DNA of 64,000 nt from an uncultured Planctomycetales bacterium (GTDB taxonomy: Bacteria; Omnitrophota; Gorgyraeia; Aquiviventales; Aquiviventaceae), in contig CAZUWM010000002.1 of NCBI GenBank assembly GCA_964624155.1, positions 5,159-69,158 on the forward strand, given 5' to 3'. A model generated the notes under the pieces. It searched no databases. It was not told the origin of the DNA and saw only the letters and a list, made by a program, of their open reading frames with translations. Position 1 is the first letter of the stretch; each line of letters starts with the position of its first letter. The position numbers and the translations under genes were made by a program. Below, piece by piece: positions 4,999-34,379 of the stretch.

Positions 4999-5463
4999 GT
5001 TCAGGAGGAGAATGGTGTAGGCGGCAGCGCCGACGTCATCGAGCATGATGCCCCACCCCGCCGGCGCTTTCGCGAACCACTTCAAGGGTGGAGGCTTGAC
5101 GATATCGAACAGCCGAAACAGCACAAAGGCGAGCGCCATCATGCCGGGAGCCTGCAGGAGGCTTGGAAACGCCGCGATCGCCGCCCACATGCCCCACACC
5201 TCGTCGATGACGACGAACGATGGATCGTGCGCGCCGGCGGCCCGCTCAGCGCTTGTCGACACCGCCACGCCGATGAGGAGGGCCATGACCAGCAGACCCG
5301 CGCGCAGCGGCGCGGCGTATGACGCCGTGAGACAACCGATCAGCAGCCCGACGCAACTTCCGGCCGTCCCGGGCGCCCAAGGCAGATAGCCGGCACCCCC
5401 GCCGGTGGCGAGGAAGTTAACGAGCCCTTGACATCGTGACATGTCAAGGGCGAGCCGACGCAT
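4981..5463 (-). CDS. pgpA: Phosphatidylglycerophosphatase A
   Basis: PgpA signature ...PWAPGTAGS...; small membrane protein; true start may be internal Met (5442). Confidence 0.8.
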   Translation of the reverse strand: MRRLALDMSRCQGLVNFLATGGGAGYLPWAPGTAGSCVGLLIGCLTASYAAPLRAGLLVMALLIGVAVSTSAERAAGAHDPSFVVIDEVWGMWAAIAAFPSLLQAPGMMALAFVLFRLFDIVKPPPLKWFAKAPAGWGIMLDDVGAAAYTILLLNLVHRP

Positions 5464-19177: not shown

Positions 19178-20650
19178 TTATTGGCCGGCGGCGGCGACGG
19201 CTCGCTTGCCCTTATCCTCGACGAGATGGACCGTCATAAAAATGAGCAGGTCCAATTGATCCTGGCCGGATGGGGTCTGCTCCCGTCGATTCGTAAAGAG
19301 GGCGCCCAAGATCGGAATATCGCCGAGAATGGGAACCTTGCTTTGCGTCACCCGCTCAGCCTGTCGTTTCAACCCTCCGATCGCCAAGGTCTGCCCATCG
19401 ACAAGCCGCACCTGCGTCTGGGCTTTCTGGACATCAAAATCGGGAAACGTGATCCCCGAGGCGTACGTCCGATCAGACCCCACGGTGGTGATTTCCGGCT
19501 TGACGTCCATGACGATTTCTTGTTCCAGGTTCACCTGGGGCTTCACCTTGAGAATGATCCCGGTTGAGCGCGTCTGAAACCCACTGACCGTCGCGCGACC
19601 CGTCGAGGGATCGACCTGAAAATTTGGAATGTTCACATCCGTCCCCACCTGGACACTGGCTTCTTGGTTGTTCAACGTCACAATGGTGGGATTGGAGATC
19701 ACCCGCGTATCCACCCGCTGCTTGAGCATGTTGATGGTCGTCGCCAACTGCGACATCGTGATCGTCCCGAAGACAAATTGACCGCCTGCGTTCGGAATGA
19801 ACCCCTGGTTGGCGACGGCGTTGGTCGCCGCCGAGGTACCGGTGTAGAAGAGATCCCCTGGCCTGGTGAGGAACGTTTCTCCTACTTTGCCATAGGTGGC
19901 GCCCGTCCGATACGGAAAGGTCGTTGAGGAGGTCGCCGGGCTGACGGTCAACTGCATGCTGTCAAACCAGTCAATGCCGAGATTCTCATCCCGCGTCAAC
20001 CGGGTCTCGACGAAGCGCGACTCGATGTGGACTTGGGGGGTCTGCCGATCCAATCGCTCCACGACCTGCTTCAGCTGAAAGAGGTTGGCGGGCAAGTCGG
20101 TCACAATGACCGTATTGGTCCGATCATCGAACTTCACCTTGCCGCGCTCCGTCAACATCTCCTTGACGATCTCCATGACCTCTTTCGACTTCGCGTAGTT
20201 CAACGCAAAGACCTCGGTCCCCAACGCTTCTTGCTCCACCGCCTCCAAACTCATGACGCGGATGACGTTGCCCTTGCGATCATACGTGAAGCTGTACGTG
20301 CGCAGGACGATATCCAGCGCTTGTTCCCACGGGACGTTGGTGAGTTTAATGGTCACCAATCCCTCCACATCGGGGCCGGCGACAACGTCGACCCCGCTTT
20401 TCAGGGACAGGATCCTCAGGACTTGACGGATGTCGGCATCCTTGAAGTCCACACTGATCAGTCCTGTCGGCGCGAGGTCTTGAAGGGGCTGGCTCTCCCC
20501 GACGGCCACCTCGCCGGATTCGGTTTCGTCGGACCACGCCTGAGGGCCGCCGATGAGGCTGAAGCCCACCAGGCCGACCACCACACGCATGATGCCTCGT
20601 CCCATTCCATCACGGCGCATCACTTTGCACCTCCTTCGACGTATGTTCAC
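19178..20650 (-). CDS. pilQ: Type IV pilus secretin PilQ
   Basis: N0/secretin-N domains, secretin C-domain (NPTIVTLNNQEASVQVG...VPILGDIPILGALF); follows pilMNOP. Confidence 0.85.
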   Translation of the reverse strand: MNIRRRRCKVMRRDGMGRGIMRVVVGLVGFSLIGGPQAWSDETESGEVAVGESQPLQDLAPTGLISVDFKDADIRQVLRILSLKSGVDVVAGPDVEGLVTIKLTNVPWEQALDIVLRTYSFTYDRKGNVIRVMSLEAVEQEALGTEVFALNYAKSKEVMEIVKEMLTERGKVKFDDRTNTVIVTDLPANLFQLKQVVERLDRQTPQVHIESRFVETRLTRDENLGIDWFDSMQLTVSPATSSTTFPYRTGATYGKVGETFLTRPGDLFYTGTSAATNAVANQGFIPNAGGQFVFGTITMSQLATTINMLKQRVDTRVISNPTIVTLNNQEASVQVGTDVNIPNFQVDPSTGRATVSGFQTRSTGIILKVKPQVNLEQEIVMDVKPEITTVGSDRTYASGITFPDFDVQKAQTQVRLVDGQTLAIGGLKRQAERVTQSKVPILGDIPILGALFTNRREQTPSGQDQLDLLIFMTVHLVEDKGKRAVAAAGQ

Positions 20651-21114
20651 GGCGTTCCATAAGTCTCGGCCTCACGTGATTTCACCGATTCGTCGAACGT
20701 GATCCGGAGGGTCACCCGGCGACCCTCCCGCTCGAGCACGACCTGATCCTCATGGATTTCCGCCACCCGGTAGCCCCCCACCATATCTCCCACCACGGTG
20801 TCTTGCTCATTCAAGAGGGCGATGGAACGACCGGCCGGATCCCACAAGATCCCCCCCAGCAATGGCAGCGAGGTGTCCAGGGGTCCTGAAAGCAGAAGGG
20901 TGTCGCCGCTCGCTGCAATGGCCCGTCCATCCCGAACGAGCGGCACAAACGGATCGCGTTTGCCCTTCGCATCGTACGTCTCCGCCTTCACAGATAGCAC
21001 AGCAGCACAGAGGACACAGATGAAAGCACACAACACCACAGAGCACACAGAGAACTTCTCCGTGTCATCTGTGGTGTAGCGCTTTTTCTCTGTGTGATCT
21101 GTGTTCTGTGACAT
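20647..21114 (-). CDS. pilP: Type IV pilus assembly protein PilP
   Basis: RDPF motif (KGKRDPFVPL), beta-rich C-domain; N-terminal ~40 aa are encoded by the CACAGAT repeat array, so true start is uncertain. Confidence 0.7.
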   Translation of the reverse strand: MSQNTDHTEKKRYTTDDTEKFSVCSVVLCAFICVLCAAVLSVKAETYDAKGKRDPFVPLVRDGRAIAASGDTLLLSGPLDTSLPLLGGILWDPAGRSIALLNEQDTVVGDMVGGYRVAEIHEDQVVLEREGRRVTLRITFDESVKSREAETYGTP

Positions 21115-21170
21115 CTGTGGTTATCTGTGTATCTGTGCCATCTGTGCAGCATCTGTGGCATCTGTGAGGG
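20988..21170. repeat. Large palindromic array: ~7 CACAGA(T/G) units on left arm, ~10 (A/T)TCTGTG units on right arm
   Basis: Spans pilO 3' end and pilP 5' end; translated into both proteins. Confidence 0.85.
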
Positions 21171-21729
21171 TCACATACGTCAGCAAGATAAGCTTCACGT
21201 TGTGGCGGCGCAGCTCTCGCTCAGACTGACTGATCCGCAACTGCTTGACCTCGATGGACTGATCCCCGGATTCGACACGACTGAGGAACATCCCGAGTTG
21301 ATGGAAGCCGGACAACGCGTCGATTTCGATGGCCACCGCCTTATAGAGCCCTAGCGAGACCTGAGTGTTTGGCTCCAACGGTTGAGCGGACCGCTGGGGA
21401 AAGATGGAGAGAATTTTCACGCCGGTCTGACTGGCCAGTTCTGAGATCCATTCGATGACGGTGGGTAGCGCGTCCTCGGAGGGGAGCTGGTCCCGCAACT
21501 GGGCCACGCTGGTCTGGAGACCGGCGTATTCTTGCTGGATGTTCGTCGCTTGAGCCATCAACTGCTCCATCTGTTGAACTTGCTTGCTCGCCTCGCGGAC
21601 CTGCTGGCTCAGGCGGACGACCGCACCAGCGAGCGGCTGCAGGAGATACAGGTAGTAGACGTACACGGCGAGGCTCATCAGCATCACCAGCCCAACCAGG
21701 AGTCGCCGTTTTTCGCTCAGGCGCTTCAT
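21121..21729 (-). CDS. pilO: Type IV pilus assembly protein PilO
   Basis: N-terminal TM, coiled coil, PilO-like C-domain; C-terminal 14 aa (TDATDAAQMAQIHR) encoded by the repeat array. Confidence 0.75.
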   Translation of the reverse strand: MKRLSEKRRLLVGLVMLMSLAVYVYYLYLLQPLAGAVVRLSQQVREASKQVQQMEQLMAQATNIQQEYAGLQTSVAQLRDQLPSEDALPTVIEWISELASQTGVKILSIFPQRSAQPLEPNTQVSLGLYKAVAIEIDALSGFHQLGMFLSRVESGDQSIEVKQLRISQSERELRRHNVKLILLTYVTLTDATDAAQMAQIHR

Positions 21730-21730
21730 C

Positions 21731-22306
21731 TCATTGTACAGCAGCTTCCAGGACGCATGTCACCGTAAACAGAGTGATCTCTACGTCGTTTTCTCTTGTG
21801 CTTTTGATGGATTCGATTTGAATGTCCCGAACCGCGGAGGTAAACGCCGGCTGGTCCTTGAGATTCTGAACCAGTTGGCCGATCTGAGCCATTTCTTGCC
21901 CCTCTTGACCGAGCGCGGCCCCCTCAATCACCAGCCCGCGAACCGGATCCAGGGAGAGGGTCGTGAACCAAATGCCTTCCGGGGTGGCATCAGAGAGCGT
22001 GTTGAGGCGCCTGGCCCACACGCTCTCGCCACGATGCAAGCCCTCAAACGACGTCTGCTGGGTCCGAAGCTTCTGAAGGGTGACGCGGAGCCGATCCACC
22101 TCCACGCGCCTGGGTTGCAGTTGCTGCAACTGCGCATTCAAGTGATTGAGCTGCATCTGACGGACCTGCCGGACGAGCGCCAGCAGGATGGTCAGACCCA
22201 GGACGATCGCCACGACCACCGAGACGAGCGGTGAGCGGTGGAGTGGGGGAAGAGGGGTGGCGGTCGTCTTGCGATACGACTCTGGCAAGAGGTTGATTGT
22301 GAACAT
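21731..22306 (-). CDS. pilN: Type IV pilus assembly protein PilN
   Basis: Internal Met start MFTINLLPESYRK (canonical PilN N-terminus), TM, coiled coil. Confidence 0.75.
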   Translation of the reverse strand: MFTINLLPESYRKTTATPLPPLHRSPLVSVVVAIVLGLTILLALVRQVRQMQLNHLNAQLQQLQPRRVEVDRLRVTLQKLRTQQTSFEGLHRGESVWARRLNTLSDATPEGIWFTTLSLDPVRGLVIEGAALGQEGQEMAQIGQLVQNLKDQPAFTSAVRDIQIESIKSTRENDVEITLFTVTCVLEAAVQ

Positions 22307-22307
22307 G

Positions 22308-23341
22308 TCAGCCTCGAAGGGCCAACCCGTACGCGATCGCAAACTGGTTTGACACCCGCTGGGCGAAGGGCCATGGTGTCACCGGCTGTGTGAGGTGTTT
22401 CTTCAACGCCTCCAGCAGCCCGCCCGATTGACTCAGGCCACCGCTGAGAACGACGTGATTGGGAGACGGCCCGAAATGGCTCTCGAAGAAATCAAATGAC
22501 AACTGCAATTCTTCGATGAGCGGTTCACATCCCGTCGCCAACACGTTCAACATCTCAGACGACGGCAGGGTACTCTGCTTCAGTTGGGTCATCGCGCCGG
22601 CCTGGTCAAGCCCAGCCTGACTCGCCATATACTGAACCAGCTTCTCCGCTCCCCATGGGATGTCGCGCACGAGATACGGCACCCCGGTTTTCAACACCGC
22701 CAGGTTAGTCCACTGGGCTCCGACGTTGATCAGCGCCGGCGTCTCCGAGTGTGGCGTGCCATTCGCGTGTTCGAGAAAAGCGTTCGTGAGCGCCAACGCA
22801 TCAACGTCCACGGTCGTCACCTCGAATCCCGCGTGTTTCACCCATCCCAACCGTTGATCGAGGAAATCTCGTTTGCACGCGACGATCAGCACCCACATCT
22901 TACTACCTGAGGAGCCAAGCACCGCCCCATCCAACACCACATCCTGAATATTGAATGGCAGGGACCGTTGGGCCTCATACGGAAGGGCTTGTCGAAACTC
23001 CGCAGGACTCAAGGTCGGCATTTCCACCACGCGCATAATCACCCACTGGCCGCTGACAGCCACCGCCACCCCTTTCAGATGTGGAGCGGGCAATCCGTTG
23101 AGAGCCTGTTGAATGGCGTGAGGGATCTGCGCCTCTTGGCCGGGTGAGATCTCAACGAGCTGTTGGCCCAGCACGCGGCGCCCGCCGAGGGCTTTGTGAG
23201 GACCTAACGCGATGGCTTTGATGGAAGAAGATCCGACATCGAGTCCCACGGCGAACTTCGCTTCTTTCGGTTTGATCGCCACGACCTGTTTGACGAACTG
23301 CCAGGCGAACTGCAGGGACTGCGGCAGGGCGAGCGGGGGCG

Positions 23342-23345
<4 letters not shown>
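22308..23345 (-). CDS. pilM: Type IV pilus assembly ATPase-like protein PilM (actin-like)
   Basis: FAVGLDVGSSSIKAIAL phosphate-1 motif; position upstream of pilN. Confidence 0.8.
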
Positions 23346-24033
<688 letters not shown>

Positions 24034-24049
<16 letters not shown>

Positions 24050-24606
24050 GTCATCAAGGTCGCCAACGTGGCGGGGGATTCGATCACCCCGTTGGCGGCA
24101 AACCCGTTCACCCCTTGCTGGGATTGTAATGCACCGTTCTGCCAGACACATTCCCCGAGCGTCCGATTCCGATGACGCCAGCAGACCGAGACGGTCAGCC
24201 GAATCGGGTCGTCACCGACAACGCAGGCAGCCGTGGTGCCCGCTTCGTTCTGGCACGTCACGACGATCAGCTCCTCCGTCAACGGATTGGGTTGAAGGCT
24301 CTTCCCGCCACCGCAGCGCTGCAACCAATCGTCCCATGAGGCGATGGGATCCGTGCAGGTGCCCTGTCCCGTTGCGGCAGGCACAGTATTCGATGGCAAC
24401 GTCGAGCACGTGGGGGTGGTGTTCTGCAACCTGAGTTGTTCCATGACGCGATTGGCGTCATTGATCGCCCAGGTGAGATTTCTGGCATGCTCTGCAAGGA
24501 TCATCTGTCCGAGAAACGCTCCTAAAAACGCGGTCACCGCAAGGGCCAGAATCGCCACGCCGATGAGAACTTCCGGCAGCGTGAAGCCTCCGTGCCACGG
24601 CCTCAC
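24034..24606 (-). CDS. Type IV minor pilin (PilV-like)
   Basis: GTG start giving MRPWHGG|FTLPEVLIGVAILAL; Cys-rich C-domain. Confidence 0.65.
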
Positions 24607-24616
24607 CAGGTTGGCT

Positions 24617-25147
24617 TCAACAATCCGCCGGCGGGTCAGTGACCAACGCATCAGTCGCCTCTGCCGGACCAGAACCTGTGCAATGACGAACGCGTCCGGT
24701 GTTATCCAAGAAAAAAGCTCGTGTGCCCAGCGAGCCGAGCGATTGAGGATTCGCGGTGACGAAGTAGCCCGTGCAGCCGGTCGCGCAGCCGCTTGGCTGG
24801 GCGGTGTAGGTATAGAGATACCCCTGGAACAGCGAGTTCGTCATCGACATGTTGAACGAGGGGGGGCCGTAATCTGGATCCACGTTGTCGTACATATCCG
24901 CCTGCCAGTTGGACGGAAACACGTTGTTGATCGAATGATGCGTGTGCAACATGGAGGCCAGCGCATGCAGGTTGCCGATCGCCGTCGCCTCGTTCGTGGT
25001 GCTGCGGGCCCGCAAAATACTCTGGATCGCGACCGCCACCAGCAGACCAACGATCCCTAGTGCCACCACCAGCTCGACGAGCGTAAAGCCGCGCACCCTA
25101 GCTTCACGTAGCCTACGCGTGCAGCGTTGGAGCGCGAACCGCCGCAT
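24617..25147 (-). CDS. Type IV pilin (PilA-like paralog 2)
   Basis: ...ARVRG|FTLVELVVALGIVGLLVAVAI; shares WQADMY..DPDYGPPSF and C-terminal Cys-containing tail with the next gene. Confidence 0.7.
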   Translation of the reverse strand: MRRFALQRCTRRLREARVRGFTLVELVVALGIVGLLVAVAIQSILRARSTTNEATAIGNLHALASMLHTHHSINNVFPSNWQADMYDNVDPDYGPPSFNMSMTNSLFQGYLYTYTAQPSGCATGCTGYFVTANPQSLGSLGTRAFFLDNTGRVRHCTGSGPAEATDALVTDPPADC

Positions 25148-25230
25148 CCGGGTTACTCGAGAGGAGACGGGCCCCAGCCTCCGCCCGAGGCCCATCTTCA
25201 CTCTCGATTAGTGAGCTCTCTTACGGCGAC

Positions 25231-25722
25231 TTAACACGCGTCAGGCGCTGCATCGAGCGTGCGGTCGTCCACCATTCCCGCAGCCGTCCCGGTCCCCCGA
25301 CAGTGCCGAACAATGCCCGTCTGATTGGCGAAAAACGACCGGGTTCCCGTCGTCCCCAACGCCTGAGGAACCGTCAGCAGGGTAAAGGTCTGCGCCGCGG
25401 TTCGGTTGTACGTATAGGTGTAGCCCTGGACCGTATCCGCCGCTGCCCCAGCGAGGGCGAGATCAAACGACGGCGGCCCGTAGTCCGGATCGGGAGTCGT
25501 GTACATATCCGCTTGCCATGCCGCAGGGTACACGTTGTTCACCGCCCGGAACATCTCCACCCCCGCCATCAGCGCCCGCATGTTCGCCACCGCCGCCGAC
25601 TCATTGGCCGTGGTGCGGCCACGCAACACGTTCGGGATCGCAATCGCCGCCAGCAAGGCGATGATCGCGACCACGATCATCACTTCAACCAAGGTAAACC
25701 CTCTACGAGAAAGGCGTGTCAT
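25231..25722 (-). CDS. pilA: Type IV major pilin PilA-like (paralog 1)
   Basis: MTRLSRRG|FTLVEVMIVVAIIALLAAIAIP canonical prepilin; SD AAAGGAGAT 8 nt upstream; 163 aa. Confidence 0.8.
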   Translation of the reverse strand: MTRLSRRGFTLVEVMIVVAIIALLAAIAIPNVLRGRTTANESAAVANMRALMAGVEMFRAVNNVYPAAWQADMYTTPDPDYGPPSFDLALAGAAADTVQGYTYTYNRTAAQTFTLLTVPQALGTTGTRSFFANQTGIVRHCRGTGTAAGMVDDRTLDAAPDAC

Positions 25723-26267
25723 CGGAGAGATCTCCTTTTGTTTGGTAGGCTGTGCACGTTGCGGGGAGGGATTTTTTGATGGAATGATGATGCCTTCCGC
25801 TTCCCGTCCGTCACCACGCCACAGCGTTTCCGCATCGCTGCATTGTTGACTTCCAACCGCGTACGCTTCACCTCCTTTCAACCTCAAACAAAAACGCCAC
25901 TGCCGCATGGACAATGGCATCATGACACCTTCGTCTCCTTCATGCGGCAACCCAGCCACCCTGTGAATCAGAAAGCAGGACAGCAGTCGACAGCCGGCGT
26001 ACACGTCGGAGCCGGTTAGCCCGGGAGGCTAACGACTCTCCTTAAGCCGACTGCGTTCTGCCCACTCGCTTCTCCCACAGGGCCTGTGGCTTTCCCCCAC
26101 CACAATACCTGGTGGGCCCGCCTCGATTTCTGGCGGGGGCCCCGTCTCACGACGTCCGCCAAACGACCTCGGCGGATCCGCCCGTCTCTGTGGCGGAAGT
26201 GTGGCTTTTTCGCTGAGACACCTGTACTATGCCACACGTCTCGTGTCATCGTCAAGTGTTTTCCGTG

Positions 26268-26321: not shown

Positions 26322-27593
26322 TTAATAGGGGCTGATGAGCTGGGAGATCTGGAAGACCGGAAGGAAGAGCGCGATCACGATCGACCCGATCACGAGGCCC
26401 AGCACCGTGATGATGATCGGTTCGATCAGGCTGGTGAGAGCGTTGACGGCCGCATCGACTTCATTTTCATAGAACTCGGCAATCTTCCCAAGCATCTTCT
26501 CCAGTTCACCGGTCTTCTCCCCCACGGCGATCATCCGAGTCACCATCGGAGGAAAGATCTGACTGTTCGCGAGGGGGTCGGCGATGTTGGCGCCCTCACG
26601 GATGCTCGATCGGGCCGCCAGCGCCGCCTGTTCAAGCAATTTATTGCCGACGGTCTTGGCCACGATCTCCAAGGACGTGAGGATCGGCACCCCGGAGCGC
26701 GACAGGGTTCCCAATGTGCGAGCGAATCGCGCGACCGCCACCTTCTGCAGCAAGGGTCCAATGAGGAGGATGCGAAGCTTCAGCCGGTCAAACCACAATT
26801 GACCGATGGGCGTGGCGAGGAACAGGCGGAAGGCGACCACCATCACCAGCACCACCACGATGACCACAGGAAAGTACTTCCTCAACAAGGCGCTGGCGGT
26901 GAGGAGGAGCTGCGTGGGGAGCGGCAATTGCCCACCCAACGACGTAAAGATGTCCTTGAATTTCGGCACGACCACGACCACGAGGAACGTCGTGATCGAG
27001 AAGGCCAGAAGGCACACGAGCGCCGGATAAAAGAGGCTGGACTGGACTTTCCGTTTGAGCATGTCAGCTTTTTCCAAATAGCCGGCCAGTCGATCAAGGA
27101 TCTCATCCAGGCGACCGGACGACTCCCCGGCCTTGACCATATTAATAAAGAACTCCGAGAAGGCGCGAGGATGCTTGGCGAACGCTTCGGAAAGACTGGA
27201 GCCGGATTGGACCTGGTTCGACACCGCCCGCAAGATGCGACGGAAAACCCGATCCTCGATCTGCTCGGTGAGCACCTCCAGGGCTCCGACGATCGGAATT
27301 CCGCTCGCCACCATGGTCGCTAATTGCCGTGAAAAAATGACGAGCTGCTGGGTGGAGACGCGTGGCTGACCCAGCCCGAAGAGGAGTGACCTGGAGGAAC
27401 GCTCTTCAACCGACAGGACGACGCACTCTTGTTTCCAGAGCTCCTCGATGAGCGCCGTCTTGGACTCGGTCTCCAAGACGCCGTTTCGGGTATGCCCGGC
27501 TTTGTCTTTGATGACATACGCAAATGTCGGCATCTTTATTTTTCTACTTGGATTACACAGATTTCCCAACTCGATTTCACAGATTGAATCCAA
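26322..27593 (-). CDS. pilC: Type IV pilus inner-membrane platform protein PilC (GspF family)
   Basis: Two T2SF repeats, 3 TM; 423 aa. Confidence 0.85.
   Translation of the reverse strand: MDSICEIELGNLCNPSRKIKMPTFAYVIKDKAGHTRNGVLETESKTALIEELWKQECVVLSVEERSSRSLLFGLGQPRVSTQQLVIFSRQLATMVASGIPIVGALEVLTEQIEDRVFRRILRAVSNQVQSGSSLSEAFAKHPRAFSEFFINMVKAGESSGRLDEILDRLAGYLEKADMLKRKVQSSLFYPALVCLLAFSITTFLVVVVVPKFKDIFTSLGGQLPLPTQLLLTASALLRKYFPVVIVVVLVMVVAFRLFLATPIGQLWFDRLKLRILLIGPLLQKVAVARFARTLGTLSRSGVPILTSLEIVAKTVGNKLLEQAALAARSSIREGANIADPLANSQIFPPMVTRMIAVGEKTGELEKMLGKIAEFYENEVDAAVNALTSLIEPIIITVLGLVIGSIVIALFLPVFQISQLISPY
27551..27590. repeat. CACAGAT cluster (GATTACACAGATTTC / GATTTCACAGATTGAATC)
   Basis: pilB-pilC junction. 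Confidence 0.75.
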
Positions 27594-27602
27594 CGCCTTT
27601 CC

Positions 27603-29309
27603 TTATTCTTCCGAGGTGACGTGCAAGACTTCTTCGAGGCTGGTCAGGCCCATCGCGGCCTTCCTCAGTCCATCTTCCCGCAAGGTTTTCATCCCTGCTC
27701 GTTCGATGGCGGAACGCTTGATGTCCCAGGATGGTGCGCGGCTGACAATGAGGTCACGAATCGGCTCATCCAGCACGAGCACCTCGATAATGCCGAAACG
27801 GCCACGGTACCCGGTCTGTCGGCACGCGGAGCAGCCTTTGGCGGTATAGAAGATCGCTCCCTCAGGGGGAACCGAACCGAGGCGCTTCATCAGATCGGCG
27901 GGAGGCTGGATCGGCTGACGACATTTCAGACAGAGCTTCCGGACCAACCGTTGAGCCTCGATCAGCACGATACTCGAAGCCACCAGGAACGGTTCGACGC
28001 CCATGTCGATGAGCCTGGTCACGGCGGAGGCCGTGTCGTTGGTGTGCAAGGTCGAGAAGACCAGGTGTCCCGTGAGGCTGGCTTTCATCGCGATATCCGC
28101 CGTTTCGAAATCACGGATTTCACCGACCATCACCACATCGGGATTCTGGCGGAGAATGGCCCGAAGCCCCGCCGCGAACGTGAGGCCGATCTCCGGATTC
28201 ACCGGCACCTGCGTGATGCCTTCTACTTGATATTCGACGGGGTCTTCGATGGTAATCAGACTGCGCGTGGACGCGTTGAGCAGGCTCAAGATCGCGTAGA
28301 GGGTGGTGGATTTCCCGGACCCTGTCGGGCCGGTGACCAAGATCATACCGTGGGGACGCTTGGTCGCTTCGGTGAGGCTGCTGACCGCCTCAGGCAAAAA
28401 CCCCAGACGATCCAGTCCCGCGGTGAGCTGACTGTTGTCCAGCAGCCGCAAGACCACCTTGCCCCCATGCGTGATCGGCAGCACCGAGACACGAAAATCG
28501 ACTTCTTGCCCCTCCAACCTCACTTTGAACCGCCCATCCTGTGGCAGGCGCCATTCAGTGATATCCAGTCCTGACATAATTTTCAGTCTGGTGAGGACGG
28601 TGTTCTGGACCGACTTGGGAAATTGATGAGCCTCCATCAGGTGGCCGTCAATCCGATAGCGCACCCGTAAGACATCTTCCATCGGCTCAAGATGAATGTC
28701 CGAGGCTCGCCTCCGTAGGGCTTCGCGGATCATCTGGTTGATCGCTTTCACAATCGGCGCCTCGCCGTGTTCCTCTGAGATGACCAGATCCGTCGTCTGC
28801 TCCTCCTCCCGGGTAGCAGGTTCTTCAGCGGCCTCGGTAGGGGTGCCGTTGTCGGTGGTACCGGTCAAGGTGGTGGTCGGTGCGTAGACCTGCTCAATGG
28901 CGCGCCGGATCTCGGCCTCCGAGACGAGCACGGGATCCACCGCGTACTGTGTGAGCATCTTCAGATCGTCTAAGGCCATGATGTTCAATGGATCGGCCAT
29001 CGCGACGACAACCCGTTCGCCAAACTTGGAAATCGGGATGACGGTATATTGACGCGCCAGTCGTTGCGGGATCAGCTGCGCCACCGCCGGGTCCACCCGA
29101 TATTTGGCCAATGACAAGGTGGGGATGCGCAATCCTTCCGACACGAGTCCCACGAGCGCCTGCTCCGTCATCACCCCGCGAGCCACCAGAAGTTGCGTCA
29201 AGTCTCGCCCGCTCGCTCCGGCTTCCTTGAGGAGGCCGGTAAGCTGCTCCTTCGTGACCAAGCCTTTCGACACGAGGAGTTCTGAGAGTCGCTGACGAAA
29301 ACTGCTCAT
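27603..29309 (-). CDS. pilB: Type IV pilus assembly ATPase PilB (GspE family)
   Basis: Internal Met start MSSFRQRLSELLV (T2SSE_N/MshEN-like N-domain), Walker A GPTGSGKST, Asp/His boxes, tetracysteine CLKC...CSAC. Confidence 0.85.
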   Translation of the reverse strand: MSSFRQRLSELLVSKGLVTKEQLTGLLKEAGASGRDLTQLLVARGVMTEQALVGLVSEGLRIPTLSLAKYRVDPAVAQLIPQRLARQYTVIPISKFGERVVVAMADPLNIMALDDLKMLTQYAVDPVLVSEAEIRRAIEQVYAPTTTLTGTTDNGTPTEAAEEPATREEEQTTDLVISEEHGEAPIVKAINQMIREALRRRASDIHLEPMEDVLRVRYRIDGHLMEAHQFPKSVQNTVLTRLKIMSGLDITEWRLPQDGRFKVRLEGQEVDFRVSVLPITHGGKVVLRLLDNSQLTAGLDRLGFLPEAVSSLTEATKRPHGMILVTGPTGSGKSTTLYAILSLLNASTRSLITIEDPVEYQVEGITQVPVNPEIGLTFAAGLRAILRQNPDVVMVGEIRDFETADIAMKASLTGHLVFSTLHTNDTASAVTRLIDMGVEPFLVASSIVLIEAQRLVRKLCLKCRQPIQPPADLMKRLGSVPPEGAIFYTAKGCSACRQTGYRGRFGIIEVLVLDEPIRDLIVSRAPSWDIKRSAIERAGMKTLREDGLRKAAMGLTSLEEVLHVTSEE

Positions 29310-31018
29310 CCCACCACCTCGCCAACCGTGGTGCGAAAGACCTCGTCCAGTGTCGTGATGCGCTCCTTGACTTTTTGGAGGGCATCCTCCCGGAGGGTCC
29401 GCATCCCCGTCTTTTGAGCCGCCTCTTCGATGACGCGCTCTTGCGAGCGCTGGACAATCAGCTCTCGGATCTCCGGTGTCATCACCAAGATCTCCGCAAT
29501 GACTTGCCGTCCGCGATATCCCGATTGGGTGCAGGTCTGGCATCCGCTTCCCTTCGCCAGTTCCAGCACCTCACCACGCGCATCAACCAGGCCAAGTCGC
29601 CTCGCCAGCTCCTTGGGGGGTCGATAGGTCTGCGTGCATCGAGGACAGATTCGACGGACGAGCCGTTGCCCGATCACCGCGCTGACGCAGGAGTTGATGA
29701 GAAACGGCTCAATCCCCATGTTGACGAGCCGCACCACCGTCCCCACCGCGCTGTAGGTGTGCAAGGTACTCAGGACCAGGTGGCCCGTCAGCGCCGCCTT
29801 CACCGCCATATCCGCCGTCTCCCCGTCACGGATCTCCCCCACCAAGATGACGTTGGGATCCTGACGGAGAATGGCCCGCAGGGCCTTGGCGAACGTCAGA
29901 TCAATCTCGGCTTTGACACTCATCTGATTGATGCCTTCCAGATGATATTCCACCGGATCTTCAACGGTCACCAGGTTCTTGTCGGGCCGGTCAATGTATT
30001 TCAACAGCGCGTAGAGGGTGGTGGTTTTCCCCGACCCGGTCGGTCCGGTGGCGAGAATCATCCCATGCGGACGTGCGGCGCACCGTTTCAATCGCTCCAA
30101 ATCCTCCGGACGAAACCCCATGGTTTCGAGATCGAGCATGATCTGCTGGCGATCCAACAGTCTCAGGACGATCTTTTCCCCGAAACTCGATGGGAGCACC
30201 GAGACGCGCACGTCGATGGCTCGATTATCCACCGAGAACACGAAGTGCCCATCTTGGGGCAGTCGATGCTCGGCGATGTCGAGCTCCGACATCACCTTGA
30301 TGCGGGAGACGAGTGCTGGCTCAAGCTGTTTGGGGGGGGCTTCGACTTCCTGCAGCAAGCCATCAATTCGGTACCGAATTCGAACCTTGTGTTCCATCGG
30401 TTCAATGAGCACGTCGGAGGCCCGCAGATGAACCGCCCGCGTCAGCATCGCGTCCGTCAACCGCACCACCGGCTGGGCCTGGCTGAGGGGGATGGCGTCT
30501 TCTTCCTCAACGTCCACTTCCACGGAGGGGGAGTCTCCTGATGAGGGCACGGCTCGGAGCATCTCGCCGATGGTTTCTTCCATGCCGATCCCATAATACA
30601 GGTCGATGACCTCGCGGATGTCTTTGAGCGTGGCCAACAGGGGGTTGATCGCATAGCCCGTCATCGTGGCGATCGTCTCGATCGCAAAGATGTTCAACGG
30701 ATCGGCGATGGCCACGGTGAGCGTCTTGCCGATACAGGAGACGGGCACCACATCGTATTGTTTGGCGATCGGACGGGGGATCATGACCCTGAGCTGCTCA
30801 TCCACCTTAAAACGGGTCAAGCTGATGAGGGGGACGTTGAGTTCTTGACCAATGAGGGAGAGCAGCTCGGGCTCTTTGACAAACCCTTTCTGAACCAGAA
30901 TCTCCTGGAGACTCCCGCCATGTTGTTGTTGGAAGGCCAAGGCCTCCTGGAGCTGTTCGGGCGTGACCAGGCGCTTGGAGACAAGTAGTTCAGTGAGTCG
31001 TGCTTTCAGGCTGGTCAT
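29306..31018 (-). CDS. Second GspE/PilB-family secretion ATPase
   Basis: 570 aa; T2SSE_N-type N-domain (RLTELLVSKRLVTPEQLQEALAFQ), Walker A GPTGSGKTT, tetracysteine CPRC...CQTC; start/stop coupled to pilB. Confidence 0.85.
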   Translation of the reverse strand: MTSLKARLTELLVSKRLVTPEQLQEALAFQQQHGGSLQEILVQKGFVKEPELLSLIGQELNVPLISLTRFKVDEQLRVMIPRPIAKQYDVVPVSCIGKTLTVAIADPLNIFAIETIATMTGYAINPLLATLKDIREVIDLYYGIGMEETIGEMLRAVPSSGDSPSVEVDVEEEDAIPLSQAQPVVRLTDAMLTRAVHLRASDVLIEPMEHKVRIRYRIDGLLQEVEAPPKQLEPALVSRIKVMSELDIAEHRLPQDGHFVFSVDNRAIDVRVSVLPSSFGEKIVLRLLDRQQIMLDLETMGFRPEDLERLKRCAARPHGMILATGPTGSGKTTTLYALLKYIDRPDKNLVTVEDPVEYHLEGINQMSVKAEIDLTFAKALRAILRQDPNVILVGEIRDGETADMAVKAALTGHLVLSTLHTYSAVGTVVRLVNMGIEPFLINSCVSAVIGQRLVRRICPRCTQTYRPPKELARRLGLVDARGEVLELAKGSGCQTCTQSGYRGRQVIAEILVMTPEIRELIVQRSQERVIEEAAQKTGMRTLREDALQKVKERITTLDEVFRTTVGEVVG

Positions 31019-31481
31019 TGGTGTGATCTTTGTACGAGCGTTCCAAGGCCTTGAGGATATCCGAGGGGGTACTGATGAAGGCTTGGACCACGCAACTCGT
31101 CAGCATCTCAATATCCTCGATGGCCTGGATGTTGGATGGATCGGCCATGCTCACCGTCAAGGAGTTCCCCACCCGATCGATGGGAATCACGCAATACTGC
31201 CGCGCCACGCGTTCGGGAATCAATCGCACCATGCCATCATCGAGCTCGTAGTTCTCGAGGGGCAGATACGGAAATCCGTACTGAGCGGTCAGCGCCAAGG
31301 CGATCTCTTCCTCGGTGGCAAACCCGAGCTGTGTGAGGACCTGGCCCAACAACCCCCCGTGCGTCCTCTGGTAGGCGAGGGCGTCTTCGAGTTGCTGAGG
31401 CGTAATCACCCCTCGCTCAAGAAGCACCTCCCCAAGTTTTTTCGTCACCACCCGTCTCGCCATTTTCTTGTGAGATGACAC
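30990..31481 (-). CDS. Standalone T2SSE_N/MshEN-type domain protein (putative c-di-GMP receptor)
   Basis: 163 aa; KLGEVLLERGVITPQQLEDALAYQ fits the 24-residue MshEN c-di-GMP-binding motif RLGxxLLxxGLLxxxxLxxxLxxQ; no ATPase domain. Confidence 0.65.
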   Translation of the reverse strand: MSSHKKMARRVVTKKLGEVLLERGVITPQQLEDALAYQRTHGGLLGQVLTQLGFATEEEIALALTAQYGFPYLPLENYELDDGMVRLIPERVARQYCVIPIDRVGNSLTVSMADPSNIQAIEDIEMLTSCVVQAFISTPSDILKALERSYKDHTNDQPESTTH

Positions 31482-31512
31482 AGATTCCCAAATTAATCTG
31501 TGAACTCATCTC
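31469..31512. repeat. Palindromic CACAGAT/ATCTGTG pair
   Basis: gatgacacagattcccaaattaatctgtgaactcatc; between MshEN-type gene and pilT. Confidence 0.75.
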
Positions 31513-31515
31513 TTG

Positions 31516-32592
31516 CTAGCGGTGCATCAGCCGCATGAGATCATCCGGATCGCTGGAACGACCCATCGCTTCATCCATGGTGATCACGCGGTTGACGTAG
31601 AGTTCGTACAGCGCCTGGTTCATCGTCTTCATGCCTTCCTTTTGACCGGTTTGGATCACGGAGTAGAGTTGATGGACTTTCGACTCACGGATCAAGGAGC
31701 GCACCGCATGGTTGGTGATGAGGACCTCGGTCGCCAGCGTTCGCCCCTTCCCACCGGCCTTGGGGATGAGCTGCTGGGAAATGATCCCCAAGAGCTCCAT
31801 CGAGAGCTGCACCCGGACCTGATTCTGTTGATGGGCGGGAAAGACATCGATGATCCGGTTGGCCGTCTGAACCGCATCGGAGGTGTGAACCGTCGCGAGA
31901 ACCAGGTGACCGGTCTCGGCCACCACCAGGGCGGTTTCGATGGTCTCCAGGTCGCGCATTTCTCCAATGAGGATGACATCGGGATCCTGTCGTAAGACAT
32001 GCTTGAGGGCTTGCGCAAAGGACTGGGTGTCGGGGCCGACCTCCCGCTGGTCGATGATGGACTTGTTCGACGTGTGGATATATTCGATGGGATCCTCCAC
32101 GGTGATGATATGACACCGCTGGGTCGTGTTGATGTGATCCACCATGGCGGCTAAGGTTGTCGTCTTTCCTGAACCGGTCGCGCCGGTGATCAGCACCAAT
32201 CCCTTTGGCTTTTCACATAGCGACGTCATCAGGGGGGCCGGCAAGCCCAGCTCCGCGAAATTCATGATCCGTAGCGGCAACATCCGAATGGCCAGTCCCG
32301 CATAGCCTTGCTGCACGAAGCAGTTGCCACGAAATCGGGCGAGGCCTTCAATCGAGAAGGAAAAATCGAGCTCCTTCGATCGTTCGAATCGTTCGATCTT
32401 CTCCGGGGAAAGGAGGCTGTAGGTCAGCTCCCTGACGTCTTCCCCGCTCAAGGCCCCGTGATCGGTGGCGATCAATAGGTCATCGGTGCGAAGATACGGT
32501 GGGAGGTTGGCCGTCAAGTGGAGGTCAGTCGCTCCCTGCTCCACCATCAATCGCAACAACTGCTCGATCGTGGGCTTCGTCACCGTCGCCAT
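31516..32592 (-). CDS. pilT: Twitching motility retraction ATPase PilT
   Basis: 358 aa; Walker A GATGSGKTTT, AIRNLIRE-like helix (AVRSLIRESK), no N-terminal T2SSE_N or Zn motif. Confidence 0.9.
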   Translation of the reverse strand: MATVTKPTIEQLLRLMVEQGATDLHLTANLPPYLRTDDLLIATDHGALSGEDVRELTYSLLSPEKIERFERSKELDFSFSIEGLARFRGNCFVQQGYAGLAIRMLPLRIMNFAELGLPAPLMTSLCEKPKGLVLITGATGSGKTTTLAAMVDHINTTQRCHIITVEDPIEYIHTSNKSIIDQREVGPDTQSFAQALKHVLRQDPDVILIGEMRDLETIETALVVAETGHLVLATVHTSDAVQTANRIIDVFPAHQQNQVRVQLSMELLGIISQQLIPKAGGKGRTLATEVLITNHAVRSLIRESKVHQLYSVIQTGQKEGMKTMNQALYELYVNRVITMDEAMGRSSDPDDLMRLMHR

Positions 32593-32662
32593 TCAGTTCC
32601 TCCTTAATAGGTTCAACCCTTGCGAAGCTGATAGTCCAGCGATGAACAAAAACCGTTTAAGT

Positions 32663-34105
32663 TTAAGATACCGATCCACCGATACCGACGGCACGCAGCG
32701 AGATCATGGCTTTTTCGATGAGATCCTCGCCGGTAATTCCGTCGAGTGGGTTCTCCGCGATCCCCACCTCCAACTGGAGGGGAGTCGTTCCGTTCGAGAA
32801 TTCTTCGAACGTCGTCACCATCCGTCGTCCCAGCTCCTCGGAGATCTCCAGCGCTTGCCGTTTATTGCGCTCCGGCAAGACGACGACGATCTCATTGCCG
32901 GCGAAGCGACCCACGCGATCAATCTCGGTCACCGATTCCTGGACAAACCGAGCCACCTTCTTGATGAGGCGCTCCGCCTCCGGCTCCCCGAACTGTCGAC
33001 GAAACGCTGTCAGGCCCTGCATCCGAAACATCAACAGCCCACATGGGCGCTGGTACATGACGGCCCGTTTGATTTCCTCATCGAGACGACGCTTGATGTA
33101 GCGCTCGTTGTAGACGCCGGTCAGCTCATCGCGAATGGCCAACGTCTTCGCCTTGCGCAGCAACACCTCATTCTCAATCGCAATAGAGGTCTGCTTCGAA
33201 AACACCGTGACCAAATCAACCCACTCGGGGGCCCAGGCGTACGACCCTCGACGGTTCCCCATGCCCAGCACGCCAACCCGGTGGGAACGCATCGTCACCG
33301 GTTGCAGGATCAGATTCGGCTTCCCCAGTTGCTCCCAAATGGCTCTCAGCTCCTGGGGCGGCTGATGCTCATGGTCGATGGCGATCGGTCCCATTTCCAC
33401 GGGAAGGTCGTGGAGGAGATTCACGTCGAGTTGGGAGGTGCGCTTCAAGGTGAAGGACAGGTCTTCCACGGGCTGTAGCGAGAGCAGGCTGAACCCCTGG
33501 TCGTCTTGGGTCGCCAGCTTCTCGACAATGAGCTCGAGGATGACGTCCAGCTCGGTCCCGCTGCCGAGCAGTTCCCCGATCTGCAACAAGCCTGAGAGCA
33601 TGACGACGCGCTTGTTGATTTCCAAATTAATCTCATTCGTCTTCTCGCCCATCTTGTTGAGCTCGGACATATTGCTGCGGATTTTGGCCGTCAACTGGTT
33701 GAGGGCCTGGCTGAGATCACCCAACTCATCGTCTTCGTCTGTCACGCGCAGCTCGCGGTCAAACGCCCCGTTGGCGGCGATCTCCTTCGCCTCCTGGCTA
33801 AGCCGAATCACAGGCGCAATGAGCTTGACCGTCAAGTAGACGCTCCCCAGAAACGCGATGAAGATCGTCAGCGTGATGAGCCCGAGAAGCCACCAGGTGA
33901 CCGCGGCGGGACTCTCGAGGATCGGGAACCAGCGTTCCAACTGGTAGAATTCCCGGACCGATGGCAGCCCAAACCATCCGGCCATCAAGATCAGCATGAT
34001 GATGGGGATGACGGACATCAGGGTGAATGACAGGGTCAGTTTCACCCTCATTCCCCTGGGCGCCAACCGTAACCCGCGAAAAAAATGCGAGGCGACTTCA
34101 CGCAT
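32663..34105 (-). CDS. Membrane HAMP-GAF-GGDEF protein with degenerate active site (RFAGNEI instead of RxGG[DE]EF)
   Basis: 2 TM + HAMP, GAF-like middle, GGDEF fold with A-site AGNEI and I-site RxxD replaced (TEID). Confidence 0.75.
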   Translation of the reverse strand: MREVASHFFRGLRLAPRGMRVKLTLSFTLMSVIPIIMLILMAGWFGLPSVREFYQLERWFPILESPAAVTWWLLGLITLTIFIAFLGSVYLTVKLIAPVIRLSQEAKEIAANGAFDRELRVTDEDDELGDLSQALNQLTAKIRSNMSELNKMGEKTNEINLEINKRVVMLSGLLQIGELLGSGTELDVILELIVEKLATQDDQGFSLLSLQPVEDLSFTLKRTSQLDVNLLHDLPVEMGPIAIDHEHQPPQELRAIWEQLGKPNLILQPVTMRSHRVGVLGMGNRRGSYAWAPEWVDLVTVFSKQTSIAIENEVLLRKAKTLAIRDELTGVYNERYIKRRLDEEIKRAVMYQRPCGLLMFRMQGLTAFRRQFGEPEAERLIKKVARFVQESVTEIDRVGRFAGNEIVVVLPERNKRQALEISEELGRRMVTTFEEFSNGTTPLQLEVGIAENPLDGITGEDLIEKAMISLRAVGIGGSVS

Positions 34106-34379
34106 GGTTTTTCCCTCCTCGAGTTTTGTGGATCATCGTCAGGATGCGTTGCTCGAATTGCTCCGTGGTCCTGATGCCTTCCCCGGTGAGCTGAACAGAC
34201 CGAAGGGCATTGACCATCGCGGCAAGGATCTGCGTGCGTGATAATTTCACACCGGAGGAAAACAGGGCGTCTTTCCCGAGCTTATCCAGGAAATCGACCT
34301 GGTCGCGGTTTAGGGAGGCCACCACGCGGTGAGCGCGTTGGTGGTCGTCAGGTGTGACTGATTTGTGAGAGTTCGCCAT
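34098..34379 (-). CDS. Small hypothetical protein, translationally coupled to the GGDEF gene
   Basis: ~93 aa from internal Met MANSHKSV; 8-nt overlap with downstream gene; no recognisable domain. Confidence 0.4.
   Translation of the reverse strand: MANSHKSVTPDDHQRAHRVVASLNRDQVDFLDKLGKDALFSSGVKLSRTQILAAMVNALRSVQLTGEGIRTTEQFEQRILTMIHKTRGGKNHA

Follow-up and report, generated by a model that had tools for sequence, protein, structure and literature searches.

A stand-alone MshEN domain encoded beside two PilB-like motors in Omnitrophota: a predicted c-di-GMP sensor of a type IVa-pilus-like system

The pilus locus considered here lies in a 64,000-nucleotide stretch of DNA (the window; positions 5,159 to 69,158 of contig CAZUWM010000002.1, GenBank assembly GCA_964624155.1) from an uncultured bacterium named as a member of the Planctomycetales and placed by GTDB in the Omnitrophota. 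Between the gene for PilT, a retraction-type ATPase, and those for two extension-type ATPases, PilB1 and PilB2, it encodes a small protein that consists of an MshEN domain alone. In MshE-type ATPases this sensor is the N-terminus of the motor itself. The locus therefore raises the question of what a free copy of the domain is doing there, whether it can be expected to bind cyclic di-GMP (c-di-GMP), and with which of its neighbours it works. The evidence given below points to a c-di-GMP-sensing module split off from the extension motor PilB1, possibly from the PilB1/PilB2 pair, and on balance this reading is, if narrowly, a probable one.

The gene for the small protein, referred to as MshEN-only, is located on the minus strand at 30990-31463 and encodes 157 amino acids from an ATG at 31463. 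The open reading frame (ORF) can be extended to a GTG at 31481 (30990-31481, minus strand), which gives the 163-residue form of the initial annotation, but the orthologues in the databases start at M7 of that form and thus correspond to the 157-residue protein. The annotation of the protein as an MshEN domain and nothing else is correct, as PF05157 (70.1 bits, cut-off 23.1, E=1.6e-19) and NF053729 (64.5 bits), the 53-residue c-di-GMP_motif model of NCBIfam with a cut-off of 38 bits, were the sole families matched. The predicted c-di-GMP signature is likewise 53 residues long (31281-31439, minus strand). Motif I reads KLGEVLLERGVITPQQLEDALAYQ (31368-31439) and is followed, after the five-residue spacer RTHGG, by motif II, LLGQVLTQLGFATEEEIALALTAQ (31281-31352). 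Two 24-residue motifs of the form [RK]hGxxhhxxGhhxxxxhxxxhxxQ, five residues apart, were taken as the criterion, and MshEN-only conforms to it; its departures from the motif are a K at position 1 and, in the second half, L at 1', T at 7' and A at 12'. When the strict motif was run as a regular expression against all six-frame ORFs of at least 150 amino acids in the window, MshEN-only was the single match. The near-perfect c-di-GMP motif that had been described for this protein is thus borne out.

A phmmer search with MshEN-only retrieved the N-terminal domains of PilB, PilF and MshE, including the Vibrio cholerae MshE structure 5HTL at E=5.7e-17. The protein aligns without gaps to residues 6-118 of MshE, so that K9, L10, G11, Q32, L38, L39, G40 and Q61 (157-residue numbering) correspond to MshE R9, L10, G11, Q32, R38, L39, G40 and Q61. 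The ligand-contacting residues G11, G40, Q32 and Q61 of MshE are all kept. An AlphaFold2 (AF2) model of MshEN-only has helices at residues 10-16, 22-35, 39-45 and 51-61, followed by an alpha/beta subdomain. The initial annotation had suggested a structure prediction against MshEN in complex with c-di-GMP, and that structure, 5HTL, is indeed the top Foldseek match of the model, itself a moderate one (E=5.6e-9, template modelling score ~0.45). MshEN-only is a bona fide stand-alone MshEN domain.

The conservation of the protein was examined in a locus survey with one genome per GTDB species, in which relatives were confirmed in 299 stretches. The nearest homologues belong to metagenome-assembled genomes (MAGs) of Candidatus Omnitrophota, and the best 80 of the 299 loci are all from Omnitrophota, some of them automatically labelled Planctomycetales. 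The 120 best of 1746 homologues all consist of a single domain and are 149-180 residues long. The mean column identity is 68% among relatives that are 64-97% identical to the window protein, and the ratio of nonsynonymous to synonymous substitution rates (dN/dS) is 0.05 against locus L002 and 0.14 against locus L007; MshEN-only is under strong purifying selection. Across 83 loci the glycines at positions 3 and 3' and the glutamine at 24' are present in 83/83 and the glutamine at 24 in 82/83. L6 is invariant, L17 is found in 82/83 loci and L21 in 78/83. A segment after the motif, TAQYGFPYLPL, is conserved as strongly as the motif itself.

Measurements on related proteins indicate what these residues may be worth. 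In MshE, the G11L mutant had no detectable c-di-GMP binding, G40I bound 72-fold more weakly, and Q32A/Q61A bound ~10-fold more weakly (supplement of PMC5013675). The GSPII-B domain of Thermus thermophilus PilF binds c-di-GMP ~83-fold more tightly than MshEN (PMC11731258). The first residues of the two MshEN-only motifs, K in motif I and L in motif II, are the same two deviations from the RLG consensus that occur in GSPII-B. When K or L of GSPII-B was reverted to Arg, binding became weaker, 25-fold in one of the two mutants, and K167L strengthened it (PMC11731258). From the residues retained, specific binding of c-di-GMP by MshEN-only is considered reasonably likely, and the protein would bind one c-di-GMP, its affinity probably being high.

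The MshEN domains that are still attached to the motors are degenerate. MshEN-only is 36% identical, without gaps, to the N-domain of PilB1 and to that of PilB2, so the three domains can be compared position by position. PilB1 (570 residues; 29306-31018, minus strand; T2SSE 458.7 bits, MshEN 65.4 bits) has a degenerate motif region at 30842-31000 on the minus strand, beginning RLTELLVSKR..., in which G3 has become T, G10 has become R, G3' has become Q and Q24' has become E. In PilB2 (569 residues; 27603-29312, minus strand; T2SSE 458.8 bits) the degenerate motif, RLSELLVSKG...KEA, lies at 29133-29291 on the minus strand, and the replacements are G3 to S, Q24 to A, G3' to T and Q24' to G. The position-3 glycine is thus lost from both half-motifs of each window motor. 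The substitutions noted initially, A at position 24 in PilB2 and R at position 10 in PilB1, are among those found.

The same tendency was seen in the residue counts, which cover 67-81 loci. The three commonest residues of PilB1 (81 loci) are T, I and V at position 3 and S, Q and K at position 3', and position 24' is mostly G. Those of PilB2 are S, I and A at position 3 and R, A and G at position 3', with variable residues at 24 and 24'. PilB1 has therefore lost both glycines and PilB2 has mostly lost them, and neither motor retains the intact Gly and Gln of an MshE-type motif. On NF053729, MshEN-only reaches 62.6-66.6 bits in four genomes, PilB1 44-53 and PilB2 22-38; in the window PilB1 scores 52.8 bits, above the cut-off of 38, and PilB2 33.4, below it. 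Together with the counts from about 80 loci, these scores agree with the earlier statement that the motif of the small protein is better than those of the neighbouring ATPases. That PilB1 has lost c-di-GMP binding is inferred not from the profile but from its glycine substitutions and the MshE G11L and G40I data. The Walker A and B motifs, the His box and a cluster of four Cys are retained in each ATPase, so that both look catalytically competent. Both fall short of the NCBIfam equivalog cut-offs, that of PilB (TIGR02538) as well as that of GspE (TIGR02533). Several orthologues of PilB1 carry the public name 'Flp pilus assembly complex ATPase component TadA', which looks wrong from their residues and locus.

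Which neighbour the free domain serves was addressed through gene order, for which ORFs were called in the surveyed loci and assigned to the window proteins by BLASTP. The recurrent order is RodA, a small ORF, the membrane-bound GGDEF protein described below, PilT, MshEN-only, PilB1, PilB2 and PilC, in which the small ORF, the GGDEF protein and PilT are not always present. PilB1 is the next gene after MshEN-only in 72/72 loci with downstream sequence, and in 67/72 it starts within 150 nucleotides, frequently with an overlap. In the window the 3' end of the MshEN-only gene overlaps the PilB1 start by 29 nucleotides in a different frame; between the PilB1 stop and the PilB2 start the overlap is 7 nucleotides. 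PilB2 is present in 59/61 loci. The upstream side is less constant: among 69 loci, 32 have the GGDEF protein only, 22 both the GGDEF protein and PilT, 14 PilT only and 1 neither. The GGDEF gene is therefore upstream in 54/69 loci, often directly adjoining, and pilT lies within 3.2 kb upstream in 36/69 and is missing there in 33/69. Two loci at 48% identity, L089 and L090, lack both and have the order RodA, MshEN-only, PilB1, PilB2, a second MshEN-only gene and PilC. From these two loci and the survey order, the invariant core consists of MshEN-only, the two PilB paralogues and PilC; the GGDEF protein often accompanies this core, and pilT is optional. The second stand-alone MshEN (L089, 11034-11486; also in L090) scores 56 bits on the c-di-GMP motif model.

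The partner question is also informed by natural gene fusions. A 765-residue protein, P0128, carries an N-terminal domain 56% identical to MshEN-only, a low-complexity linker and a full PilB1 that is 58% identical over 570 residues and has its own degraded MshEN domain; at its locus the fusion is followed by PilB2 and PilC. Two further MshEN::PilB1 fusions were found: P0391, at 84% identity, and P0392, which is at 66% identity and comes from an Omnitrophota MAG in NCBI. With three examples, the fusion is evolutionarily maintained, though rare. The fusions, the universal adjacency and the frequent overlap of start and stop argue that the free domain works physically with PilB1. Together, the fusions, the adjacency and the dN/dS of 0.05-0.14 point to PilB1, not PilT, as the likely partner of MshEN-only, and no comparable evidence was found for PilT. 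At one fusion locus (L088, 1-7718), rodA, the GGDEF gene and pilT are missing upstream, and in their place are a giant glycoside-hydrolase-like protein of at least 1792 residues and polysaccharide-modifying enzymes.

Several observations weigh against a c-di-GMP-sensing module of PilB1. The GSPII-A domain of PilF matches the motif and fails to bind c-di-GMP, so a motif match is necessary and insufficient. The first residue of motif I is Q in 49/83 loci, and Q at this position falls outside the relaxed motif [RKPN] of Wang et al. The AF2 model is of moderate confidence (pLDDT, the mean per-residue confidence score, 68; pTM, the predicted template modelling score, 0.42). PilB1 itself passes the c-di-GMP_motif cut-off in the four genomes with 44-53 bits, and the fusions account for only 3 of the best 120 PilB1 relatives. 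Furthermore, a motif scan of the 64-kb window revealed no active cyclase, EAL, HD-GYP or PilZ; matches to an EAL-type pattern fell only within proteins that are not EAL-domain proteins. In 10 related loci, likewise, no called gene belonged to a PilZ or EAL family. In favour of the reading, Omnitrophota genomes are reported to contain PilZ genes and GGDEF domains (bioRxiv 10.1101/2023.11.21.568195), and c-di-GMP signalling within the phylum is plausible.

The GGDEF protein (480 residues; 32663-34105, minus strand) adjoins pilT, as had been noted, but it does not follow it; on the minus strand it is upstream of pilT in transcription. It matches HAMP (PF00672), GGDEF (PF00990, 83.5 bits) and, weakly, GAF (GAF_3, 18.6 bits), and GAF families are called by precomputed Pfam assignments in many of its orthologues. 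The AF2 model (pLDDT 81) comprises two transmembrane helices, a HAMP domain, a long coiled coil and, besides a GGDEF fold, a domain resembling GAF. In structure it is similar to sensor diguanylate cyclases, and PleD, WspR and other cyclase structures are among its matches. The catalytic residues tell another story. Alignment with PleD showed that GGEEF is replaced by AGNEI (32888-32902, in the context RFAGNEI) and that RAID, the I-site, is replaced by TEID (32918-32929), both within 32888-32929 on the minus strand, in agreement with the A-site reading and the loss of RxxD described initially. In addition, the metal-binding D327 has become R, K332 has become T, the guanine-binding N335 has become R, and D344 has become E. 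The fold of a diguanylate cyclase is therefore present, whereas its A-site and its metal-, guanine- and phosphate-binding residues are not.

These losses are not peculiar to the window. In 64 orthologues the GG[DE]EF signature was found in none, the typical sites being GDNEF, GGNEF, DDNEF and GDDEF. The RxxD I-site, whose position is five residues before the A-site, was also found in none, with [TS]E[IV]D or similar in most. N335 is replaced throughout, and the more distant orthologues retain D327 and the C-terminal Lys. Judged by these residues the protein is almost certainly not a diguanylate cyclase, as the initial annotation had held. The companion suggestion that it might be a c-di-GMP receptor is not supported: a receptor of the PelD/PopA type, in the canonical I-site mode, was considered and rejected with RxxD absent from all 64 orthologues. 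Lacking both the catalytic residues and RxxD, it is best described as a conserved pseudo-cyclase, neither a source of c-di-GMP nor an I-site receptor. That its gene often lies directly beside that of MshEN-only hints at a functional connection, the simplest being a role as membrane signal input or scaffold. A number of the orthologues (P0272, P0294, P0408 and P0412 among others) are publicly named 'diguanylate cyclase', a name that looks wrong from both residues and locus.

In the arrangement we propose, MshEN-only would be the c-di-GMP-sensing N-terminal module of PilB1, and maybe of the PilB1/PilB2 pair, made as a separate polypeptide of a type IVa-pilus-like system of Omnitrophota. It would bind one c-di-GMP and dock on PilB1 or on the PilM/PilC platform, and pilus extension would thereby become c-di-GMP-dependent; a control that MshE, Myxococcus xanthus PilB and T. 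thermophilus PilF exert in cis would here be exerted in trans. The pseudo-cyclase most likely acts as a membrane-anchored signal-input or scaffold partner, working through protein contacts, and the c-di-GMP would then be supplied by cyclases encoded elsewhere in the genome. A more elaborate scheme would have a three-part input, unlike any PilB cofactor so far described, in which the HAMP-GAF-dead GGDEF protein passes an envelope or contact signal by protein contact to the free, high-affinity MshEN receptor, which in turn licenses a two-motor, possibly heteromeric PilB1/PilB2 extension engine; in the course of evolution nucleotide sensing would have been separated from the ATPase and a pseudo-cyclase recruited as its partner. 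Taken as a whole, this is a speculative extension and an unlikely one.

The possibility was considered that MshEN-only has no nucleotide ligand and is a structural or adaptor subunit that bridges PilB1 and PilB2 or docks them to PilM/PilC, its motif serving to build a four-helix bundle. The first residue of motif I is mostly Q and that of motif II is L across the family, the TAQYGFPYLPL segment is conserved as strongly as the motif and suggests a protein interface, and the co-conserved GGDEF protein is unable to supply c-di-GMP. However, the invariant residues are those that touch the ligand in 5HTL, including two Gln that contact only the ribose-phosphate. In the sister domains of the two PilB proteins the fold and the hydrophobic positions persist although those Gly and Gln are lost, so the fold does not require these residues, and the K1/L1' pair occurs in PilF GSPII-B, a nanomolar binder. 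A ligand-free adaptor is therefore regarded as a doubtful alternative, though one to be taken seriously. Less credible still is the possibility that MshEN-only is merely a recent gene-split artefact, a pseudogene remnant of a two-MshEN PilB or the product of an assembly frameshift. Fused versions do exist, and the 29-nucleotide overlap with PilB1 is in a different frame. Nevertheless, the split form, with its own start codon, occurs in ~80 independently assembled species genomes, at a variable spacing to PilB1 and with dN/dS of 0.05-0.14; conservation and dN/dS effectively refute a pseudogene or assembly artefact, and the whole notion is scarcely tenable.

Two alternatives concern the neighbours rather than the domain. 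The initial annotation had proposed that the free MshEN governs both extension and retraction, and in such a scheme a c-di-GMP-loaded MshEN-only would switch the pilus via PilT or act as a decoy N1 domain that competes with the motors for PilM/PilC. In the window its gene does sit between pilT and the PilB genes. Moreover, the MshEN_C subdomain of type II secretion ATPases is where GspL/PilM-type proteins are bound (PDB 4PHT and 2BH1, cited in PMC8389850), so a free copy could compete for that site. The distribution of genes favours PilB1 instead: adjacency in 72/72 loci, overlaps and three fusions tie the domain to it, and natural fusions never join PilT. The pilT gene is missing from the 3.2 kb upstream in 33/69 loci, about half, and in L089 and L090 two free MshEN genes flank the two PilB genes with no pilT. 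A switch or decoy is accordingly judged decidedly improbable. It is more improbable by far that the GGDEF protein makes c-di-GMP locally for MshEN-only, as DgcJ does for Escherichia coli NfrB. Its presence in 54/69 loci, often with abutting genes, and its public annotation as a diguanylate cyclase would fit that role, and in more distant orthologues the first metal-binding Asp is retained, along with a site resembling GDDEF or GDNEF. In the window protein, however, the GG pair and the acidic third residue of the A-site are gone, as are D327, K332, N335 and D344; no orthologue has GG[DE]EF, and the guanine-recognising N335 is replaced throughout.

The split-off sensor can be placed among systems already described. 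V. cholerae MshE, M. xanthus PilB and Clostridium perfringens PilB2 share with it the MshEN fold, the two 24-residue motifs with a five-residue spacer and the context of an extension motor. In MshE-type ATPases the sensor is the N-terminus of the motor, whereas in Omnitrophota it forms a polypeptide of its own, and the copies that remain on the ATPases are degenerate at the glycines that contact the ligand. The initial remark that such an arrangement is not a standard part of type IVa pilus loci therefore holds for model organisms, but not for Omnitrophota, where the layout is conserved in at least 299 species genomes. T. thermophilus PilF has three tandem GSPII domains, of which B and C bind c-di-GMP and A does not. 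In both systems more than one MshEN/GSPII domain goes with each motor, and some of the copies bind c-di-GMP and others do not (as is predicted for Omnitrophota). The P0128-type fusions resemble a two-domain PilF, and the Omnitrophota system as a whole is like a multi-GSPII PilF that has been split. They differ in that PilF is one chain with a non-binder outermost, whereas in Omnitrophota the predicted binder is outermost and usually detached, and there are two ATPase paralogues.

The PilB-PilZ-FimX system of Xanthomonas and Pseudomonas (PMC8389850) is similar in that the MshEN-like domain of PilB lacks c-di-GMP motifs and the sensors are separate proteins, one of them with a degenerate GGDEF. 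There, however, sensing falls to the EAL domain of FimX, and a non-binding PilZ forms the bridge, whereas in Omnitrophota the predicted sensor is MshEN itself, the locus has no PilZ or EAL, and the pseudo-cyclase is a membrane HAMP-GAF protein. PelD likewise resembles the pseudo-cyclase: both are membrane-anchored, have a GAF and an inactive GGDEF domain, and are encoded beside a secretion or assembly machine. PelD binds c-di-GMP via an intact RxxD, but the pseudo-cyclase has TEID, and RxxD is absent in the 64 orthologues. Finally, in E. coli NfrB-DgcJ, too, an MshEN receptor has a GGDEF protein dedicated to it. DgcJ is active as a cyclase, whereas in the Omnitrophota protein none of the catalytic and substrate-binding residues checked is present.

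MshEN proteins that stand alone are frequent in sequence databases, many of the 25,226 representative matches being 145-180 residues long. In full-text searches of the literature neither a characterised protein of this type nor an account of the Omnitrophota locus came up, and a recent review on PilB cofactors (PMC11656802), looked through for MshEN, GSPII and cofactors, names none of this sort. Some relatives depart from the single-domain form or lie at a greater distance. In P0133 (723 residues) an MshEN domain, with 60-62% identity to the window protein, is found at the N-terminus and is accompanied, according to Pfam, by a PilZ domain and a C-terminal DUF7305/adhesin-like region; the protein would hold two different c-di-GMP receptor domains in one chain. 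P0167 and P0262 are more distant stand-alone MshEN relatives, found on contigs of 1-2 kb that show no gene context.

The rest of the pilus region forms a tightly packed single series of genes, all on the minus strand. The pilT gene (31516-32592, minus strand) encodes a 358-residue protein with a T2SSE domain only and no N-terminal MshEN; it conforms to the PilT/PilU criteria and scores 477.2 bits on TIGR01420 (cut-off 319.1). The mechanical ORF of PilB2 runs to 29543 (646 residues) and is an over-extension, as the orthologues begin MSSFRQ at 29312; the 77 extra codons, which overlap the 3' end of PilB1, are probably not translated. PilB2 is followed by the platform protein PilC (26322-27593, minus strand; T2SSF 215.6 bits) and by the remaining pilus genes (19178-26004, minus strand), which comprise four N-methyl pilin-like genes, PilM, PilN, PilO and a secretin (Pfam N_methyl, PilM_2, PilN, PilO and Secretin). 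First in the order of transcription is an orphan small ORF of ~93 residues (34098-34379, minus strand) that overlaps the start of the GGDEF gene by 8 nucleotides. Its synteny is kept in the closer clade, even in a locus without the GGDEF gene (L005). It had given the impression, by eye, of a ribbon-helix-helix protein, but there was no Pfam match and no PDB sequence match and no such claim is made; its membership in the module is uncertain. The genes mreB-mreC-mreD-pbp2-rodA are directly upstream of the pilus operon in nearly all examined Omnitrophota loci (window 14875-41342; L005-L090), a conserved linkage of cell-elongation and pilus genes, and dnaG and rpoD come after the operon in the window.

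As stated in the review cited above (PMC11656802), the MshEN/N1 domain is flexible and unresolved in full-length motor structures, and it is for this reason that its control of extension is poorly understood. A sensor that is a small, presumably soluble protein, accompanied by predicted non-binding copies on two motors, would amount to a clean natural separation of sensor and motor. The system is suited to asking what c-di-GMP does to the motor, where the sensor docks, and why some copies of the domain are kept and others degraded. The arrangement of a separate sensor is unsurprising in principle, yet it is testable, and it occurs in a little-studied phylum. The finding also corrects the database name 'diguanylate cyclase' of the accompanying GGDEF protein. 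Furthermore, it adds a predicted c-di-GMP receptor, present in most of the sampled genomes of the phylum, to the poorly known and largely uncultivated Omnitrophota, which include predatory or host-attached members and in which pili may matter for attachment to prey or hosts.

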